NCBI GenBank assembly: GCA_030295235.1
Contig: AP026162.1
Span: 1,674,001-1,738,000, forward strand
Direction of reading: 5' to 3'
Source: Fistulifera solaris
Lineage: Eukaryota
Length of the DNA stretch: 64,000 nt
How positions within the stretch are numbered: position 1 is the first letter of the stretch; each line of letters opens with the position of its first letter. The position numbers and the translations under genes are program-made. Under the pieces are notes generated by a model. That model was not told where the DNA came from. It ran no database searches and worked only from the letters and a program-made list of their open reading frames with translations. Below are positions 29,420-40,805 of this stretch, one piece after another.

Positions 29420-32400
29420 CTATAAGGACTTCAGTGACGCCAGTACAGGCTGTCGGGAACAAATCTTCTTTGCCTTTGAAACGAGGACTTTTATTTCCGA
29501 GCAGGGGACTAAGTAACACCGTTGTTTTTCAAATGGGTCCGCTCTGCTGAGGATCCCGATCACTCGACCTTCGTCGTTGACGCATGGTCCTCCCGAGTGT
29601 CCCTGAATAGTCGGACAGATGATGACAATTTCCTCGCGTGGCGAGAAAGAGTTATGACTGGTCGAATCATCGTCTGAGCTACTATCATCATCCTGCGGAG
29701 GGGAGACGAAACGTCGGACTATGTAACCCTTCGCAAAATCAGCAGAGCGGTTAATGTGCTTTCCTTTTCAAGAATACCGTCGCCCCCTTGATTGAATCCA
29801 ACAACTCTGACACTTTCTTCAAGCTCATATTTCGTAGTCATTTTGAGGGGTTTCAGGTCTTCTTCTAGCATCATGTCCATTGCAATAATACGCTCCGGTT
29901 GATAGGCGCAGCCCTCCCCTTCGTTGTCAACATCGTTTTCCATTCGTGTCTTGATACGGACAACGCATGCGTCAACATAATGTATGTCATCAGCGATTAA
30001 TTCTCCGAAATATCTCCACAAAGCTTTGTGCTCATTTTCGTTTCGGTTGCTATCGCTGCCGTCACTCTTCTCTGGAATAACACCAATCACCACTTTGGCA
30101 TCAGGGAGTCCAAAATAAGGGACTCCGAAATTGTTGCCTCCTTCCATGTTAAAAAGCACATGGCCAGCTGTCACGATTAAACCCAGCTTTTTGTCGACGA
30201 CGAAACCAGAACCAACGGTGCGAATTCGCTTTGTATTCGAATCCCACAAACCAACCAGGACGACACTCGGTAAAATTTCATCCACAGGTTTAGAGCCTTT
30301 TAGCGGATTCGTCGCCTCGTGAACAGGAGCATCCTTGCGATCGGCGACAGTGCCGCAAATGAGATTCGAATCTAGTCTATGCCCTCGCATGCAGCGAACT
30401 ACCGAGCTTCCGCTTTGTGCAAGAGCGTAAACACTATCCCAACTCCACGTACTAGCACTTAAAGGATTCGAACGAGCGAGACATTCAGGGCAGACAGCTT
30501 GAAAGTCCACATTCGCGTACGAATCAAGAATTTGACGCACAGCGTCGAGAACAACCTTGTAGCCACCTTTCGAACACACGAGATGCTTTTGAGTCTAGCA
30601 GTCAAGTCAATGCGTGAAATTCAAATGAAAGGTACTTACCTTGCCAGAGCTTTAAACCATGATGCCCGACTTGGCCCTTGCCGCTGACGACCACTCGTTG
30701 CATACTTGCCCGCATTGCGTCAGCAGCTACGCAATGACCGGCTGTCTGATCCACGATGGAAACAAATATTTCAACAAAGCTTTCACGCATTTCTCCACTT
30801 TCATGGTCGGCAAACACCGTTCCCATTTTGACTATTAATGATGAATTCCAGCATGCTACTTGATGAATACGGACTCTCCCAAGCGCTTGATCATCGTGCT
30901 CTTCCAAGAACTCGTTCATGGATGCCTTTCGTAAGGGTACCGTATGAGATCGCAGCATCGGCTCACCTAGTACCGGGGCTGCCTTGAATGCCTTAGAAAA
31001 TTTGTACACTTCACTAAGAACGGTGACTGTTAGATCCTCCATCAAATGTGATGGAGCACCGTCTCGAAAAAAGCCAGGAATGGCAGAGCGTTGTCATCCA
31101 TGCTTCTTTTGTTTTATAAGTCCACACCTCTCGAGGGTCGGCTTGTGCGAGCAAGCTAGGGACAAAGAATATCTCATCCTTACTGTCCAAAGAAGATGAT
31201 GACTGCGAGAAGGTACCGACGTTAAGACACACGATGTCGTACTGATTACTTTGATGTCAGGCACTTACGACATTGAGAGGAAGAAACACCCCAGTATGAA
31301 CCAATAACTGAGCCAAAAAGGCGAACATTGTAGGCGTTGAAGTAGACGTTTCTGCAACTTGAGAATAGTGATCGGCTGCCTCCCTCATGAAGCTCATCGA
31401 TTGCCAAAGCATTTCAGCATCTTTGTCGCTCAACAAAGGGCAATTGTGTGAGCCAGCGCTCAGAGTTCGAATGACTTCGCTCTCCGAAAATTTGTATGGG
31501 CTATAAATGCATTGTAAGTTCATAAATCGTCGAGTCTCTTCCAGCTCTCTTTTCAGATCATTTCTCAAAATGCAACTCAACGCCGAAACGAGCCATTTGC
31601 GACTTAGTACAATATACCGAGAAAGCACATCGTCCCCCGCTGACCCAAAATACAGAATTTCTCCAATATTTGATAAAAATTGCAAAGTCTCAGTAACTTC
31701 CTTCAATTCCATTTTGTCGCCAATTTCACCTAGTAGATAATCCAATAGTATCAATTTATGTCCTTCCTTAAACCGACGAATGAGTTCCATGACCATCACC
31801 GTGCCCTTCGATACTGGAGTGCCAACATGGTCAAAAACTGAACGAGAATCATCGGATGCTATTGCCTGAATCGTATCTTGTAAACGATCGAACCCTTCAC
31901 CGGTGGCATAGTCTACGGTAAGAATATCACTTGCGGCACTTGAAATCAACTTAGGAGCTGCGCCTTTGCTTTCCAATCTATAAACATGCTCCACCAACGA
32001 GTTTTTCAGCATACCACACCGTCTCGTAACCTCCTCTTCGGACATAATCTCATTCGGCGTGATGACTACAGGAAGCACAGCAGAATTGTCTCCTCGTTGC
32101 GCAATCATGTCAATCCAAGGAAGAACACGTTGATTGATGTCAGCCAGTAAGAAGCGATCAGCTTTCCGGTTGGCTTCTTCAAGATGAAAGGCATTTGGCA
32201 ATGCATCGGTGCCGCCCGCGTCGCCAGTCTCTTCTTCGTCTTCATTTTCTTCGTCAACATCGTCTGGTTCCCAGCCAGGAGGTATTCGAAAGGTCCTTCG
32301 ATTCATGCAAGCCAAATCCCAAACCAGTAAATACAAGGATTGACCAGAGAAAAAGAGTGACTGGGTTGCTGGATGCGCCCCAAAATTGCTCATTTCTTCA

Positions 32401-34215
32401 CGAACCTCCGGGCTTTGGACATCCCAGATCATAAACTTGATAGGTATATCATCAGCCAGATGGATACTCTCATCCTTCTTGCACGGGGTCCAACTGTGAA
32501 CGTCAACCCCAAGAGTGGCTCTACGACGTGGTCGCTTCTGACTGCCGCGGAGCGATCGCGCCACCAAGATTTATCTACCCCGGGTGCAGCGACCGTGATC
32601 ACTTTCAGCATGTCATTGTACACGTGCAAATCCGCATTGCATGATCTGGAAAGGGGTACTGGACCCCCATCGGATTTCCCACGCGGAAGAATGCGTGCGG
32701 GCGGAAGATCAGCGGAATCCAAGTCGACTGTGGTTTCTTGCGCCGCTCGCATTAACATTGCTTCCACATCCGGTGTATCGCCTTTGTCAACTTTGTAGTC
32801 AGCATCACGAGGAAGTGCACTGGCGATCATCGAGCCGTCGTCTTTTTCCAGTATGGGTGATCTTCTGTGTCGATGACAGCAGCAACATCTGCAGCCAATA
32901 CTCCTGCCTCGAGTACTGAGTCCATTATTTGATCTTCGGTCCCCACATAATTTGCCATCACGGAATTGGATCCAACCCTTCTATGTCTATGGATTGAACC
33001 TTGTAAACTGGATCCGGGAGAAGCGGCTACAGACAAAAGTGGATGATCATTCAATGAAGCCGCAGAAAGTGCGGCAGTGGGCGGTGACAATGGATCTTCG
33101 TATCGAGCCGCCGAAAAGTAGCCAGTACGATTTGATGGACCAAATGAAGATTCGAGTCCTGTAACGGCGTTAAATTGATTAGCAGGGGGAATGAAATCTT
33201 CCGGTTCAGATTGTTGTGACCTTCGAAACTGCTGATCGTCGCTATGATTCGAAGTGGAAGCTGTGTCGTCAGATCTACCCCAAGAAAAGATCGACTTCTT
33301 TTTCCCACGCTTCTTTTGCTGTTTGTTTTCTTTTCGATTGGGAGATGCCGGCAGCGGCAGATTGGCTTCTGTCGGCGATACAGTCTGCACCGGCGCTTCG
33401 TCGGAAAGAGCGGATGGTTCCGGCTCCATAACTTCAGTAGATCCACCACTTTCATTTCGCGATGAGCCACGAACGCCTCTTTTAAGAAATTTCGAAAGAC
33501 GCCTCACACCTTTCTTAACTCGATTGGGAGCCTGCGTCGCGGTTTGACACTTGCGTTGTTGCGCTTCTCTAAGTCGTTCCTGGATGATATCGCCGGGATG
33601 ATGTTCGTGTCGGGGTAACTCGACTAGATCCCCATCCACCACGTAGTATTCCACTCCACCGACACCTATATCTTGTACACTACGCATACTGGTAGCAAGC
33701 GTCGGTTCTGAATGTATATTGTGAAAATTCCTGATTTGCTCAAAGTTTCGGAGACCGTCTCCTTCACTGCGTATCGAAAGCTGAAACGTTTCTTCATCCT
33801 GATGCGCGCTAGCCAGGCGGCGTTGTTCACCGGGGACCAAAGGCGAGGATACCGCCAGCGAAAATTGATCAATCCCTGTTCGCACCAAGTCTCTCACAAA
33901 CGTAGCCACCGGATAAGCATAATTTCCCGAACTCGCTCGACGACCGTCATCGGAAATGGCTACCACAGGCACAACTGGAGGAGGAAGCTCGTCAAACTCT
34001 CTTCTTAACATTTCTGAGCTCTGGCTATTTAAGCTTCCCATATTTTGCCAGTCTCTCAACAGCGTGGAGGACGTGTGGCTGTTCAAGCCACTATTGTTGT
34101 TTGCGGCATTCGTCGCCAGGCTTTGATTTCTGTTGGCGTCCGCGGAAGCCCCTTCCGTTCCCGAAACAGCCGGAAACAGTGTATTTGTCTGTTCGTTCCG
34201 GTTTGGAGTAGTCAT
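29420..34215 (-). CDS. Roco-like protein: disordered N-terminus, degenerate ROC, COR, C-terminal trypsin-like serine protease (2 introns, ~4 frameshifts)
   Basis: LKVITVAAPGVDKS, ATLGVDVHSW, KFMIWDVQ, HPATQSLFFSGQSLYLLVWDL, LQFLSNIGEILYF, FFVPSLL, CPEC..CMRGH, then GSGFVVD, IVTAGHV, VDACVV, QGHSGGPC. Introns ~30567-30639 and ~31204-31268. Stop at 29420. Confidence 0.82.
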
Positions 34216-34551: not shown

Positions 34552-35831
34552 ATGCCTGAAGAATCGTCATCTTTGCCCTTTGCGTCTTATCACAGAGCCT
34601 CTCAAGTGGGAGCAGGATCGTACGGAAGCGTTTTGACAGTCTACAATGACGAAGGAGAACAATTTGCACTCAAGTTATTCTTCAAAGGCGACAATGACGA
34701 TGATGACGACGACGATGAAAGCGCGGTTCCTCTGGAATTAGGTACACTAAGAGAAATATCTTGCTTACGATTTCTTCGCGGACAAACAGAAGCATCACAT
34801 CATCCTCATATCATTCGTTTGGTGGATATTCAACCCGAGTGGTCGGAAGAGGAAGGAGGCGCGGGTACATCGGGATGTCTCGGCATGGCCATGCCGTGGT
34901 ACCCCTGTTCGCTCGCGAAAGCGATTGAGCAGAAAAAATTTCAGAACGACAAGCGCGTCAAAGTTCAAATAGCACACGATCTGTTGGCGGCAGTGGATTT
35001 CTTGCACAAAAATGGAATCATGCATCGTGACATTAAAAGCGACAATATTCTTCTGCAACAGGATGAAAATTCGTGGCGTGCGGTTCTCACCGATTTCAGT
35101 CTCGCCAAGGCATTTGTTAACGGAAAGGACAATTACGCGGGTCATACTGGAGAAGTCGGTACGTTAGTGTACTCAGCTCCTGAAATTCTGAATGATGAAG
35201 AGTACGATGCTTCGGTCGATTTGTGGAGCGTTGGCGTCGTCTTGATTGAACTATTGAAGCAGGAAACTATACCCGGACTCAAAGCAAAGCAGATTGTACC
35301 CCATATTCAAGCAATATTGAAAGGATTGTCTGATCAGCCGTTTCCTGATTTGATACGAAGCTTACTTAAGATGGATCCAGCCGAGCGGCTTACTGCGAAC
35401 GAGGCCTTACAGCACGAACTCTTTTCCAAGTTTCAGCTGGATGTTCCCAATTCTTCGAAATTGAATGTGAAAGATGTCTTACCATACGAATATACGAGCG
35501 ATTTATCCAAAAAGGCGAGGGAGAAACGTCTGGCCTTGATCAAAAAGGCGTGCGCGTATTTGGAATCCGAGTCACCCCTTACCGCAAAAGCGGCTTTGAA
35601 TACAGCACGCAACTCGATCAACTGGATGACAATGTGAACGAATCGCAAAGTTTACTAGACTGTGTTGTACTCGCGCATCGCTTCTTCGAGGTCGAACATC
35701 CTGATCTTGATGCGCTCGACGAGGAAGAAAAGGGTATCTTTGCCGAATGGTCGCTGTCAGAATACGTGGAAAATGAATCCACTTTGTTCATGCTGCTGGA
35801 TTATTGCTTGTATCCACGGTTCTACGTCTAG
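34552..35831 (+). CDS. CDK-like Ser/Thr kinase with a C-terminal cyclin-box-like domain (frameshift ~35596)
   Basis: GAGSYGSV, ALK, GTLREISCL, HPHIIRL, HRDIKSDNIL, DFSLAK, TGEVGTLVYSAPE, DLWSVG. The tail resembles the five cyclin-box helices. Confidence 0.8.
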
Positions 35832-36623
35832 AATAAATAGATCGATACTAGCAATAAACAATATCTAATGTTACATAAGGTGTTGTTTGTCAGTCGAATT
35901 GGTCGCAAAACGGAACACTAACGGGTGTGCTTGCGATCCGTCGACGAAAAGTCGAAACGAGAAATAAAAATGCTTTAAACCATAACCTGAAAAAACCGGG
36001 ACGATCACGTTAGAATTATTCGGTTGTGACAAAAGCAACCGATTGAGTAATCATGTTTTCGGGTACAGAATCAGGTCGCGTAGTATCGACACATTAGAAA
36101 TCCTCCGTCAGCAATTGGACATCATGATCTCGTCATCTTCTTTCTCTAGAGTATGAGCGGTGGTGCAAACGATAATAAACTCACATGACAAACGTAGTCG
36201 AGTCCTCATTATTCACGGACAGTGAATTAGATTCTGGCAGAAAAGCTAAACAGAAAAGACATGAGAAGTTGTTATACAGACGTCAAGGTCATCAATGTTT
36301 GGGAGTAGTAGAATCAGATAAACCCCTTCGTGTCTCAACACAATTTTCAGACAGCTCCAATAGTTAAAAGTGGTTTCATCATTTTCGTGGACTCAGGTGT
36401 GGTTTGCAGTCGAAGCAGAACTTACCATACATTGAGTTAATAGTAATAAGCGACTTAAGCGCACTCCCCCGAACCAATTGAAATCCATCATTGCGCACAT
36501 GGAATGCGATAATCAATAAAGTTCATAAACCGTAGTAATTTGAGCTTCCTTTTTGTAATCATCGGATGCGATCGTTGGGAAATTGGAACGAGGACAACAA
36601 ATTCATCTTACCTTCGTCTGTAA

Positions 36624-38245
36624 TCACAAATTCGAGGGATCGGTTATCCCTCCTTTCACGCGCCACAACGAGTACTCCAGGTACGAAACTCTCCCATCCA
36701 GCATCGCTTGTTCATGTAGAAAAGGCAAATAAAGAGTTCGGTGCAGTGTACTTGTCCTGTCGGCGTCTAAAAAAGGAAAAGTTTGAATCAACTCGACGTT
36801 GAGCGAAGAAACACACTCACTACCACCAAGATCGACAATCCAGTCACAATCACTTGGATCAACGTAGCGCTCCGTTTGTTCTAAGTTGCGATCATTGAAA
36901 GGCTGCAGCTGTTGTATATTTTCTGGTCGAGATCCTTTGAAAGGTTGCGGCAATTGACCTCTGAATGATGACGGCAAGAAACGCAACTCTCCGTTTAAGA
37001 AGAACGACCCGGGAAAGCGATACCATTCCCCACATGTGCAAATCACTTCCCGAGGTTGATCCGGGGCCAAAGCATAAAGTAGAAGGGGCGCCCCGTAGTA
37101 CTTGCTCAAAGCAACTGTGCGACTGACTGAAACCAGAGCGGAAGTCGTCCATACAATAGCGTGAAGACCCGTTCGCAGTCTCTTGATCAATGGTAGGCAT
37201 TTCTGAATATTATCCAAAACGATATCCACCGTAACGATGGCGCCAATGATGAGTAGGGGGTAAATGGGAAACAGAAATCGCTCTTCCTTGTGCGGTCGAG
37301 GAAAGGTGATAGCCAACCAAAGCACGAGCGGCGATAAAACGCCAAGCATCGTATATCGTCTGCACATGATACAGAGCGGTAAAGCCATCATCCCCAACGG
37401 AGCTACAATATTCAGATTTAGTAACAGATTCTTGACGTAATAAGAGACCGGCTCAACGCCATACAGCTCATCACCACCGCCAGCTGCATTGTATGTGAAG
37501 ATGTTGAGGGTCGGTGAAACCCATTTCCCATAATATGAATGATCGATCACCATGGTGGTCCCTTGCACGATAATTGTACAAAGGAAAGTCCATCCGATGG
37601 TTGCAACAAGCTTCCCAGCTCGCCAATCATTCCAAAGGATGCTAATTCCCGTGGGAAGCAACATGACTACACCAAATGGCCAGCCGACCATTAACGTCGC
37701 CGTGACCGCCACCAAAACAAAGGAGTAATGTCGGTTTTCCAAGAACAAAGCAGTTGCTAACATCCACGCCATCATCCAGGTCGAAGACGGCAAAAGGCTG
37801 CGGCCGAATGGTTGACACCGGTACTGAGTAGCAGGACGAACGCCACCCAATGAGTATTCGCAAGGTGGCCAGAAAGAGCCCATAGAATGTACAACTCACA
37901 AATAGCTGTACTTGCTCCTAGAAAACTTCGAAGAAGCAAAAATACAGCTAGTTTCTCATGGGGCACAACGTGATCGACTAAGAAAGGAGCCCATCGAAGG
38001 GCCACGGGTGTCACTATTTGTGCCACCAATTTGAGCGGGAGCAAGTATGCATACGTCCGAAGCGCATACTGATGCGCATATTCCCATGTTTGCATGCCAT
38101 ATCCGTAAAGAATGAAATGAAGCGGCTCCCAGTAGTTATAAACTTCATCGCAATCTGTGATGGGTAAGCGATTGGCCCAATAGATACGCCAGCCCACGTA
38201 TACTGGAGCTATCGCACAAAGCCAAGTTGTCTCCGTCCTACTCAT
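36624..38245 (-). CDS. ALG9: ALG9-like alpha-1,2-mannosyltransferase (GT22); frameshift ~37790
   Basis: ITDCDEVYNYWEPLH, MQTWEYA, YALRTYAY, ELYGVEP, PHKEERFLFPIYP, EWYRFPGSFFL, FRGQLP, FNDRNLE. Confidence 0.93.
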
Positions 38246-38478
38246 CTTTTCTCCGACCGTCTATAAGATAATCGAGATGCCATGAAGTCTAAAAGCTAGC
38301 AAAGGAGAGACAATGATGACATCGTCGCCCCCAACGTCGAATCATATTCGTACCTGGTAAAGTATCGCGTCGCGTTAACGATGATTTATTTGCTTGCTGC
38401 AAACATGCGGTTTAAAATCTATCAAGCATCGGCTGCCGATTGCCAGACGACACGGTACACGTTCTACGTGATATTGCG

Positions 38479-39224
38479 AACCAGAAATTCTGTGTACATT
38501 CCAGAAATTCTGGAATCGGCGATTCGCGTCAAACAGATGTCTTGTGAGCGATCCAGACATCCTGGTATCGGTGATTTGGTTCATACAGAAATTCTCCAAA
38601 GCTTCCAAAACTTCTGGAATCGGTGTTTGTAATCATCAAACAAATTTGTGGACATTTCAGAAATTCTGGAATTTCGCTGTGCACATTTCTGGTATCGGTG
38701 ATTTGGTTCATATAGAAATTCTCCAAAGCTTCCAGAACTTCTAGAATCGGTGTTTGTAATCATCAAGCAAATTTGTGGACATTCCAGAAATTCTGGAATT
38801 TCGGTGTGCTGAGATTCAGGATTCAGACAGAATTTCTGTGTACATTCCAGAAATTCTGTAATCGGCGATTCGCGTCAAACAGAACTTTTGTGAGCGATCC
38901 AGACATTTCTGGTATCGGTGATTTGGTTCATATAGAAATTCTCCAAAGCTTCCAGAATTTCTGGAATCGGTGTTTGTGGTCATCAAGCAAATTTGTGGAC
39001 ATTCCAGAAATTCTGGAATTTCGGTGTCTTTATTCAAACAGAAATTCTGTGTAAAGTCCAGAAATTCTGGAATTGGTTCAAACAGAGATATTTGGTGCAT
39101 GTTCCAGAAATTCTTGAAATAGCGTTTGCGTCACACAGAGTTTCTGTGCCTATTCCAGAATTTTTGGAATCAGCTGCGTTTGGCGTCACACAGAGATTCT
39201 GTGCCATTTTCAGAAATTCTTGAA
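38479..39224. repeat. Degenerate satellite built on the quasi-palindrome TTCCAGAAATTCTGGAA, with higher-order duplications
   Basis: Core at ~38499, 38603, 38655, 38730, 38782, 38845, 38950, 39002, 39057, 39102, 39152 and 39208. A ~128-bp block starting TGGTATCGGTGATTTGGTTCATA recurs at ~38564, 38690 and 38910. Confidence 0.9.
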
Positions 39225-39452
39225 TGAATACTCCGTAGAAGGTTTTGCGTCACGCAGAGACTTCGTGACTAAGGACGGATGAAAGTCTTACCGGGACACG
39301 GTCGTTGTACGCAAAGTCACGTAGAACATGTACGGGGACTTTTCCATCTGCCGCAAAATAGACTGCGTTGCAATGCAAAAACAAAGCGGATACCATTTGC
39401 ACCTCCTTTTTCGATCGAAATTGACGATAAAGACCCAGTGTACACAAAAGGA

Positions 39453-40805
39453 ATGGCAACGCAACGCAAAAGTCTTCCCGGTTTTTTGCGTCGCAGTTTG
39501 CGTCGGAATTACGAAGAAGACGACGAGCAAGATGTCGATGATTTGCAAGACAGCACGTCACACCGGAGCCAGGACGACGAGCCTATCGAAATCGCACCAA
39601 TATGCAATAGTAATGGAAAAGAATTAAACGGAGCCACTTTGATGCAAAATGAGGAACAAAAGGATTTAGCAAGAGACACCTCGGAAAGATCTATTTCATC
39701 TCACGGCGGTGCCCCAGTTGCGGATGAATTATCGCCGCACCGAACGAACTCTATACGCAAATCATCCAGCCCTGCTTCAGAAGAACCTTCTCATCAACCG
39801 AAAACATACAAAGAAATGCAATACGAGCGGACGTTAGACGCACCAGTCGTCAATCTAACGGATCTTCGCAAGTTGACGTGGAACGGCATACCGTTTCAAC
39901 ATCGCGCTACTTCCTGGAAACTGCTGTTGGGATATTTGCCCACCAATGCCGCTCGACGCGAACAGACGCTGCGAAGGAGACGGAACGAATACCGGGATGC
40001 GATAGCGCAGCACTACGATATTGACGATGATTCTAGAACCTTGCAAGAGCAAGAAACACTGCGTCAGGTATTGGTCGATGTTCCGCGCACAGCACCATCT
40101 GTGCCTTTATTTCGCAATGAACGCATCAAACGTATTCTGAATCGACTCTTGTACGTATGGGCTATGCGTCATCCTGCAAGTAGCTATGTTCAAGGCATCA
40201 ATGACCTTGCTACACCGCTTTTAGCGGTTTTCTTGGCAGATTATTTTGACGAGACTGTTGACGTTCTGGACGGAGAAGTCATGAATCAACTTTCGGATGA
40301 GCAGCTGGATGAACTAGAAGCTGATATCTACTGGTGTTTGACCAATCTTCTTTCCAGTATACAAGACCATTACACTTCCGACCAACCTGGCGTTCAAAGG
40401 ATGGTTGCCCGTTTGGAGGAACTGGTGAATCGTATCGACGCTGACCTTTGTCGACACCTTCGAGACACGGGCATTGAATTTCTTCAGTTTTCTTTTAAAT
40501 GGATGAATTGTCTCTTACTAAGAGAGTTTCCGTTAAAATGTGTTTTCCGACTCTGGGATACTTACCTCAGTGAGAAAGCTGGTTTTGAAGATTTTCATGT
40601 CTATGTTTGTGCGGCATTTCTTTGTCAGTTTAGCGGTCAGCTACAACAAATGTCATTTGACGAACTGTTTGGATTCATGCAGGATATCCCGACAACTGAC
40701 TGGACCGACACGGAAATTGAAATTCTTTTGAGTCAAGCGTTTGTATTGACATCTTTATTCGGAGGAAGTGACGCTCATTTGACTAGCGGACAACCAGCTA
40801 GGTAA
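39453..40805 (+). CDS. TBC1D22: TBC-domain Rab GAP, TBC1D22/Gyp1 type
   Basis: LRKLTWNGIP, WKLLLGYLP, QVLVDVPRT (Arg finger), YVQGINDL (Gln finger), QFSFKWMNCLLLRE, RLWDTYLSE. Confidence 0.92.
   Translation: MATQRKSLPGFLRRSLRRNYEEDDEQDVDDLQDSTSHRSQDDEPIEIAPICNSNGKELNGATLMQNEEQKDLARDTSERSISSHGGAPVADELSPHRTNSIRKSSSPASEEPSHQPKTYKEMQYERTLDAPVVNLTDLRKLTWNGIPFQHRATSWKLLLGYLPTNAARREQTLRRRRNEYRDAIAQHYDIDDDSRTLQEQETLRQVLVDVPRTAPSVPLFRNERIKRILNRLLYVWAMRHPASSYVQGINDLATPLLAVFLADYFDETVDVLDGEVMNQLSDEQLDELEADIYWCLTNLLSSIQDHYTSDQPGVQRMVARLEELVNRIDADLCRHLRDTGIEFLQFSFKWMNCLLLREFPLKCVFRLWDTYLSEKAGFEDFHVYVCAAFLCQFSGQLQQMSFDELFGFMQDIPTTDWTDTEIEILLSQAFVLTSLFGGSDAHLTSGQPAR

Follow-up and report, generated by a model that had tools for sequence, protein, structure and literature searches.

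A gene of the diatom Fistulifera solaris raises the question of whether a CDK-like kinase can carry its own cyclin on the same chain, and whether it still does so here. The gene lies in the window, a stretch of 64,000 nucleotides of contig AP026162.1, and was originally predicted to encode a kinase fused to a cyclin-box-like tail. For the family to which it belongs we favor, as a rather likely reading, a Ser/Thr kinase that descends from CDKs and has, at the C-terminal end of the same chain, one cyclin box that is probably its own activator. The closest named protein is FisN_1Lh717 of the same species (P0003, 426 aa), which is 95% identical to the window copy. We collected 417 proteins, of which 285 contain a nearly complete kinase of the same type. 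The whole tail is present in 277 of the 285, a set that is biased because part of it was found using the tail.

Gene organization and the fold of the tail

The open reading frame as assembled (34552..35637, + strand) starts with an ATG at 34552 and encodes 361 amino acids, comprising a kinase domain, a linker and the first cyclin helix, followed by 13 out-of-frame residues and a TGA at 35635-35637. The protein kinase domain (residues 13-291, 34588..35424) is CDK-related and matches Pfam Pkinase with an E-value of 4.7e-46. Its Gly-rich loop GAGSYGSV (34609..34632) has Tyr at the Y15-equivalent position, which is Phe in the sister copy. An acidic Asp-rich stretch of variable length and low model confidence (34693..34722) precedes the C-helix GTLREISCL (34741..34767), which contains R67 and E68, stands at the PSTAIRE position and was aligned to PSTALREISLL of the genome's own CDK. 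The catalytic loop HRDIKSDN (35023..35046) has its catalytic Asp, D160, intact, and DFG is replaced by DFS (35092..35100), a family signature with Ser in 259, Thr in 16 and Gly in 1 of 277 relatives. In the activation segment HTGEVGTLVYSAPE (35143..35184), placed in register with THEVVTLWYRPPE, T199 (35146-35148) is the CDK T160 equivalent. All of these motifs are where the original prediction had put them. It had called the DFS atypical; DFS is indeed present, but it is not peculiar to this gene, since 102/102 aligned relatives have it.

The linker from kinase to cyclin box (35428..35508) is modeled with high confidence (pLDDT 90-96 over residues 301-320) and contains a Pro, P311, that is invariant in 102 aligned rows. 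Helix 1 of the cyclin box (residues 320-336, 35509..35559), assigned from an AlphaFold2 model and a structure search, is still in frame. A one-base deletion in codon 348, within helix 2 (35593..35594), then shifts the frame, as seen in a DNA alignment with the sister copy and in read-derived contigs. The remaining cyclin box, helices 2-5, follows in the shifted frame (35595..35831); past the break, the +1 frame reads FEYSTQL...LLDCVVLAHRFFE...SLSEYVENESTLFMLLDYCLYPRFYV, ending with MLLDYCLYPR and the stop TAG at 35829-35831. The tail segments of the original prediction are present in this frame. That prediction had restored a base near 35596; one base is missing, but its site is after 35593, where the sister copy has a C.

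We built the AlphaFold2 model of P0003 on an alignment of 102 of 119 listed relatives, omitting 17 long or partial ones. The whole-chain model has a pLDDT of 89.7, a pTM of 0.91, an ordered linker and five tail helices (residues 320-336, 342-355, 366-379, 386-391 and 402-415). The tail was also folded alone (15-row alignment, pLDDT 78), and the structure search covered 48,161 chains. It matched the tail at Z 11.5-11.0 to four cyclins, namely cyclin C (11.5, with an rmsd of 3.2 over 104 residues), cyclin A2 (11.5, with an rmsd of 2.4 over 97 residues), cyclin D3 (11.3) and cyclin B1 (11.1), and the first 25 rows were all cyclin or TFIIB-type cyclin-fold chains. TFIIB, at Z 11.1, is level with the cyclins, and the fold search does not separate them; the first chain not recognized as cyclin-fold appears at Z 6.2. 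Because helical bundles may reach such Z values by chance, sequence evidence matters. A tail profile compared with the profile of 17 cyclin boxes of the same genome matched over helices 2-5 with a probability of 85.8 (E 5e-6), although the same comparison with the full-length alignment gave a probability of only 4. Pfam Cyclin_N matches 10/102 relatives at E<=1 (best 6.8e-5, model positions 15-114), spans most of the model in two of them, and reaches the curated PF00134 cut-off (23 bits) in 1/102, with 23.0 bits; the query protein itself has no Pfam cyclin match. The Atlas model of the tail has a TM score of 0.72-0.76 to cyclins. Foldseek with the tail model returned nothing at E<=0.001, the weak rows being cyclins and TFIIB, and the tail sequence profile searched against solved structures gave one chance match (E 0.27). 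The claim of the original prediction that the tail matches the cyclin-N helices is borne out by the five-helix fold, the cyclin A2 match, the profile match and the Cyclin_N matches among relatives. As modeled, the tail folds as one cyclin box, and the resemblance exceeds chance. There is no second box (Cyclin_C) in the 277 proteins, which stop a median of 4 and never more than 28 residues past the first. Stand-alone forms of the tail may exist: a search of shorter proteins gave 3 matches among 5 candidates, possibly fragments, and the best Atlas feature match of the tail is a 125-aa viral cluster (0.91).

The two best-conserved positions of the tail are the CDK-binding Lys/Glu pair. In the register of the profile alignment, R377 (35679-35681) and E409 (35775-35777) are the equivalents of cyclin A K266 and E295: they align with K70 and E99 of a cyclin of the same genome, which map to cyclin A2 K266 and E295 gap-free. 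Position 377 is Lys or Arg in 275/277 relatives and position 409 is Glu in 269/277; in the kinase-led set these counts are 102/102 and 101/102. In many structures of CDK-cyclin complexes, K266 and E295 together make bonds to the loop preceding the PSTAIRE helix, as described in the accessible text of PMC3590450.

The arrangement of the two domains resembles that of other kinase-cyclin fusions. The whole chain superposes on an oomycete kinase-cyclin cluster with a TM score of 0.82 over 386 residues and on kinases of Orpheovirus, Pithovirus and Cedratvirus with TM scores of about 0.7 over about 440 columns, all of these being matches of one predicted model to another that may lean on solved CDK-cyclin structures. 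The two domains thus sit alike in separately made models. A whole-chain search of solved structures listed kinase domains only and no single-chain kinase-cyclin match. In compact members the linker is down to 13-29 residues. Covariation between the domains (MI-APC, 277 rows, about 157 effective) is dominated by noise, with the top inter-domain pairs scattered at z 4-5, among them C71-E350 and C71-R377 on the C-helix. We infer that the box would dock on the C-helix of its own kinase. Via the ordered linker, it would fold back onto the N-lobe and keep this helix in its active position, in the way that the first box of cyclin A acts on CDK2, and we propose that no separate cyclin would therefore be needed. 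The single-chain, self-activated kinase of the original prediction is supported to the extent that kinase and cyclin box share one chain and the grip residues are kept, in intact members only.

The cyclin-fold tail could instead be a structural cap or an adaptor for substrates or partners, a reading to which we give roughly one chance in five or six. TFIIB, Rb and cyclin F use the cyclin fold in this way, and the Z scores of TFIIB and Brf chains are no more than 1 unit from those of the cyclins; in addition, helix 1 of the tail is without a Trp that the cyclin boxes of the genome itself have invariably (register by eye), and the C-helix motif is not PSTAIRE. Against this, it is the CDK-binding pair that is best conserved in the tail, the domain arrangement is that of other kinase-cyclin fusions, and the tail keeps company with the kinase. 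A search with the tail profile yields 169 clusters (50% identity), and of the 150 listed, 116 have the kinase part upstream while the other 34 are all <=201 aa and possibly fragments. Activation by the box in cis is, in our assessment, the better account of the tail.

The window copy and its sister copy

The same genome has a second copy of the gene, on contig C2, whose translation equals P0003 exactly from residue 118 to the end. The window copy has one base fewer than the C2 copy after 35593 in the DNA alignment, and no third copy was found among the scored candidates (113/221). As F. solaris is described as allopolyploid in the accessible literature, we read the two copies as homoeologues. 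As written, the window copy encodes the kinase and cyclin helix 1 only.

Several observations bear on whether the break is real. Run X1 yields two read-derived contigs, both starting at 35565, of which the one with the deletion has a depth of 19.2 and the one with the extra base a depth of 16.6. The deletion-bearing contig is identical to the window over 35565-36100 without a gap, with only 29 letters upstream of the break against a bar of 31, and X1 may be the assembly's own source. The exact 361-aa truncated protein is also on public record from a contig of 142,776 bases, much shorter than the window's contig (>2.3 Mb), although the two assemblies may share reads. Both X2 read-derived contigs spanning the break site carry a base there. 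Alleles 98% identical to the window copy, represented by the proteins P0405 and P0407, read through the break site; 253 and 252 of 258 residues match the window copy before the break, and 77/78 match after it.

A sequencing or assembly error, with the window copy in fact whole, starts from a high prior, because the C2 copy in this assembly has two one-base insertions (L002:719 and 816) that break its 5' part and are absent from P0003, and because the 12 kb compared contain many one-base indels between the copies. The C2 insertions are probably assembly errors; an X1 contig over 34803-34977, different at 10 letters, shows no gap. An error would also fit the 13 synonymous and 2 non-synonymous codon differences between window and sister copy in the 78 codons past the break, which indicate selection on the tail until recently. 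Standing against this are the two X1 contigs at similar depth, one of them identical to the window across the site, and the record of the truncated protein on a much shorter contig, which together leave an error at something like one chance in eight. The break is very probably a real, recent, strain-level truncation, and we are probably seeing the recent loss of one of two gene copies, with the sister copy whole. The original prediction had made itself depend on the stop at 35637 not being genuine; for the window copy this stop appears to be genuine, since read-derived contigs carry the deletion; the fusion is therefore lost from the window copy, though not from the family. The window copy would now encode a kinase without a working box that is probably inactive, with the other copy supplying the function. 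We discarded an intron or a programmed frameshift as the cause of the break, because a difference of exactly one base, within a conserved helix, sets the copies apart there and because the frame stays open across the site in relatives.

No RNA records carrying the window gene were found, and the gene names 1Lh717 and 1Hh717, sought for expression, are absent from 11 supplementary files of PMC5935921.

Other features lie around the gene in the window. A long multi-frame gene on the - strand (29719-34215) gives weak Pfam matches to Roc and COR-A domains and, downstream of them, to part of a trypsin-like peptidase, and resembles a Roco-type GTPase that may also carry a protease domain; it has several one-base indels relative to the C2 copy, and its breaks may be assembly errors or introns. 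An Alg9-like mannosyltransferase gene on the - strand (36624-38245, Pfam E 7.6e-45) is split over two frames near 37772-37883, where no indel was seen relative to the C2 copy and an intron or a shared break is possible. At 38375-39223 there are about 800 bases of repeated DNA with a 127-base unit in 2 copies at 95%; they fall in a gap of the C2 alignment (38469-39263) and are probably an insertion in the window copy. An ordinary Rab-GAP TBC-domain gene (E 2e-45) lies on the + strand at 39279-40805.

A CDK-related kinase domain

By profile, the nearest solved kinases are CDKs. The fold is nearest to CDK2 and CDK3, with CDK3 (Z 26.0) tied with MAP kinases and CLKs. The residues K41, E68, H158, R159, D160, K162, N165 and D181 are invariant in 102/102 aligned relatives, so that the VAIK Lys, the C-helix Glu, HRD..K..N and the Mg-binding Asp are all kept; D160, D181 and E68 are each present in 277/277. 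In the alignment with the PSTALRE CDK of the same genome, T199 falls on the T-loop Thr; it is Thr or Ser in 277/277. The basic ligands of the T-loop are R67 (266/277), R159 (275/277) and K186 (272/277), which we take to be the equivalents of CDK2 R50, R126 and R150, the last being Lys here.

Other CDK features are changed. DF(S/T) is found in 275/277 relatives in place of the DFG of canonical CDKs, and the PSTAIRE-like motif is absent, the consensus [DSNE]LGALREIS having only LREIS in common with it. The Y15 position is Tyr in 146/277 and Phe in 121/277. The CMGC insert is missing, each of the 9 family rows aligned being about 33 residues shorter there than the PSTALRE CDK of the genome. V164 and R169 of CDK2 are proline-pocket residues, and the CDK2 structure is the basis on which S/T-P specificity and Cks binding are read here. 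The V164 position is Gly in 244/277 and Ala in 18/277, and the R169 position is Arg in only 101/277, yet in 35/39 short forms. At the level of sequence, these two changed positions and the lack of the CMGC insert argue against S/T-P specificity and against Cks binding. We therefore class the domain as CDK-related and not as a canonical CDK, because it has DF(S/T), has neither PSTAIRE nor the CMGC insert, and differs from CDKs in the residues of the proline pocket. The CDK-like kinase of the original prediction stands as to its nearest solved relatives and its T160 equivalent, though PSTAIRE, DFG, the CMGC insert and the proline pocket of CDKs are absent or changed.

The original prediction had suggested that the kinase may not depend on cyclin oscillation; read functionally, it would be a constitutively active cell-cycle CDK that drives division without such oscillation. 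The closest solved kinases are CDKs, and T/S14-like, Y/F15-like and T160-equivalent residues are present. The missing CMGC insert, the Gly at the V164 position and the single cyclin box speak against this, as do the genome's own PSTAIRE and PSTALRE CDKs (4 pattern matches) and 67 Cyclin_N matches; moreover, the invariant T-loop Thr points to control by phosphorylation, which it suggests is still needed. We judge such a role improbable, at odds of about seven to one against. For the self-activated, CDK-related kinase that we prefer, the remaining switch would probably be the invariant T-loop Thr, which R67, R159 and K186 would sense once it is phosphorylated. Its substrates would probably not be the S/T-P sites of cell-cycle CDKs, because the V164 position is Gly, Arg is found at R169 in about a third, and there is no CMGC insert. 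Identity with Phaeodactylum hCDK1-7 was also considered: by eye, 0/7 forward primers translate to a stretch of the Phaeodactylum member P0027.

Distribution of the family and known kinase-cyclin fusions

Named members come from Phaeodactylum, Thalassiosira, Cyclotella, Fragilariopsis, Pseudo-nitzschia, Seminavis, Amphora and Fragilaria. By its sequences, the family occurs in both centric and pennate diatoms, in a few other protists and on giant-virus contigs. We looked up 20 clusters that did not look like diatoms, and for 5 of them the source is named: Paramoeba, Bicosta, Picozoa (2) and Amorphochlora, whose member lies on a contig of 1.2 Mb; transcriptome and single-cell records among these non-diatom members may be contaminated or viral. 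Among the matches listed, the full layout occurs in 10/80 viral loci, nine of 347-362 aa and one of 418 aa, in gene-dense DNA with neighbors that include TFIIB-like and Rpb1 genes. The compact form on giant-virus contigs (345-420 aa) is itself a member of the family, with which it shares the motifs DF(S/T), HT..[GA]T and A.K.[YF]E at 27-34% identity.

We built a kinase-domain tree of 74 rows, from which 3 long outgroup rows were removed; 44 rows are unlabeled, none is from an oomycete or a ciliate, and the root rests on two rows. The 16 diatom-labeled rows (4 by similarity only) form one clade (100/100), and support for separating the family from the two outgroup rows is 100/98. In each of the 200 bootstrap trees, 3 changes are required to account for the 7 viral rows, which suggests that genes passed between cells and viruses more than once. 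A broader proposal would make the family an old branch of the CDK tree across diatoms and distant eukaryotes, exchanged with viruses more than once, self-contained, non-proline-directed, switched by nothing but its T-loop, and possibly a cyclin-independent CDK-activating kinase, an idea that arises because the T-loop sites of CDKs are themselves not followed by Pro. We regard this as a long shot. If true, the family would fill in diatoms the role of plant CDKF or yeast Cak1, no CDKF having been found there according to the accessible part of PMC2872877, and such a kinase would let viruses switch on host CDKs, a speculative role.

Compared with CDK2-cyclin A2, the family has the nearest kinase fold, a cyclin box with Z 11 and equivalents of T160, R50, R126, R150 (Lys) and K266/E295. 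Unlike that complex, it is one chain with one box, without PSTAIRE, DFG or the CMGC insert, with Y15 unconserved and the proline pocket changed, and it is without a cyclin N-terminal region able to hold a destruction box. Cyclin and CDK-type kinase are also on one chain in the engineered fission yeast Cdc13-Cdc2, which is reportedly a synthetic protein with the cyclin first, a full cyclin with destruction box and a canonical CDK. The activator p25, related to a single cyclin box, is sufficient to hold CDK5 active, as the available text of PMC6170502 has it, and p25 is a weak fold match of the tail (Z 5.8). CDK5-p25 differs in that p25 is a separate protein of distinct topology and T-loop phosphorylation is not needed, whereas the T-loop Thr of the family is invariant.

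Fusions of giant viruses (Orpheovirus, Pithovirus, Cedratvirus, Marseillevirus; BFVD) have the same domain order and a similar predicted arrangement (TM about 0.7). Cyclin_N is found in 93% of the members of a Nucleocytoviricota kinase-cyclin cluster, and the Mimivirus kinases L670 and L673 are reportedly annotated with a cyclin domain. Longer viral or metagenome fusions have a recognizable Cyclin_N, unlike the diatom family (L146, E 8e-12; L023, a metagenome contig, E 4e-15), and L023 also differs in keeping DFG and the CMGC insert and in grouping with the CDK outgroup. No characterization of the giant-virus fusions was found in the literature searched, and the accessible text of two giant-virus papers mentions separate viral cyclins only (PMC10583209, PMC8383183).

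Judelson and Ah-Fong (2010, PMC3019232), in the portion available, describe four CDKs of Phytophthora infestans with C-terminal Cyclin_N and Cyclin_C, confirmed by RT-PCR (PITG_21617 and three paralogues). Asn replaces the catalytic Asp in these proteins, and relatives are reported in other oomycetes, ciliates and Theileria. Two kinase-cyclin fusion genes are described for Stentor (bioRxiv 10.1101/168187, available text). The intact diatom proteins are like these in having the kinase first and the cyclin domain C-terminal on one chain. The oomycete fusions have two boxes with strong Pfam matches, while the diatom family has one very diverged box, DF(S/T) and no CMGC insert. The family would be very unlikely to be a pseudokinase scaffold with DFS marking lost activity: the published protist fusions are thought inactive (PMC3019232; bioRxiv 168187, both as far as accessible) and DFG is replaced in all but 1/277 relatives, but the published inactive forms of oomycetes and ciliates have Asn for the catalytic Asp, whereas the family described here keeps this Asp in 277/277, with HRD intact and the other catalytic residues invariant.

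The kinase-cyclin layout itself is thus already known from oomycetes and ciliates. What would be new, as judged from the sequences, is a version with a single box and DF(S/T) that is apparently active, conserved among diatoms and shared with giant viruses. Diatom cell-cycle inventories treat CDKs and the expanded cyclin family as separate proteins. The accessible text of the Phaeodactylum inventory of Huysman et al. (PMC2872877) lists five CDKs, seven hypothetical CDKs and no CDKF, and no mention of a kinase-cyclin fusion was found in it. The single survey that sought kinase-cyclin fusions reported none in diatoms, finding them in neither T. pseudonana nor P. tricornutum (PMC3019232, available portion). 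The family was apparently missed because the public models are partial, those at NCBI for Phaeodactylum (228 aa) and Fragilariopsis (235 aa) ending inside the kinase, and because the box is under the Pfam cut-off; no description of the family was found in the literature searched, mostly papers open without subscription. Catalytically intact-looking and with a single box, the protein would be a natural minimal CDK-cyclin unit that can be tested in a tractable diatom, and the giant-virus members offer a 350-residue version suited to structure work.

Three longer kinase-cyclin fusions of other types were observed on metagenome or viral contigs (L023:1450-3120, L146:2722-4083 and L100:2986-4563). 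The member in the Bicosta record (P0309) is followed in frame by an adenylate-kinase domain (E 4.8e-27), possibly in a chimeric transcript. At another locus, an ORF upstream of the kinase gene (L004:3-410) resembles, by eye, the end of a resolvase-type recombinase.
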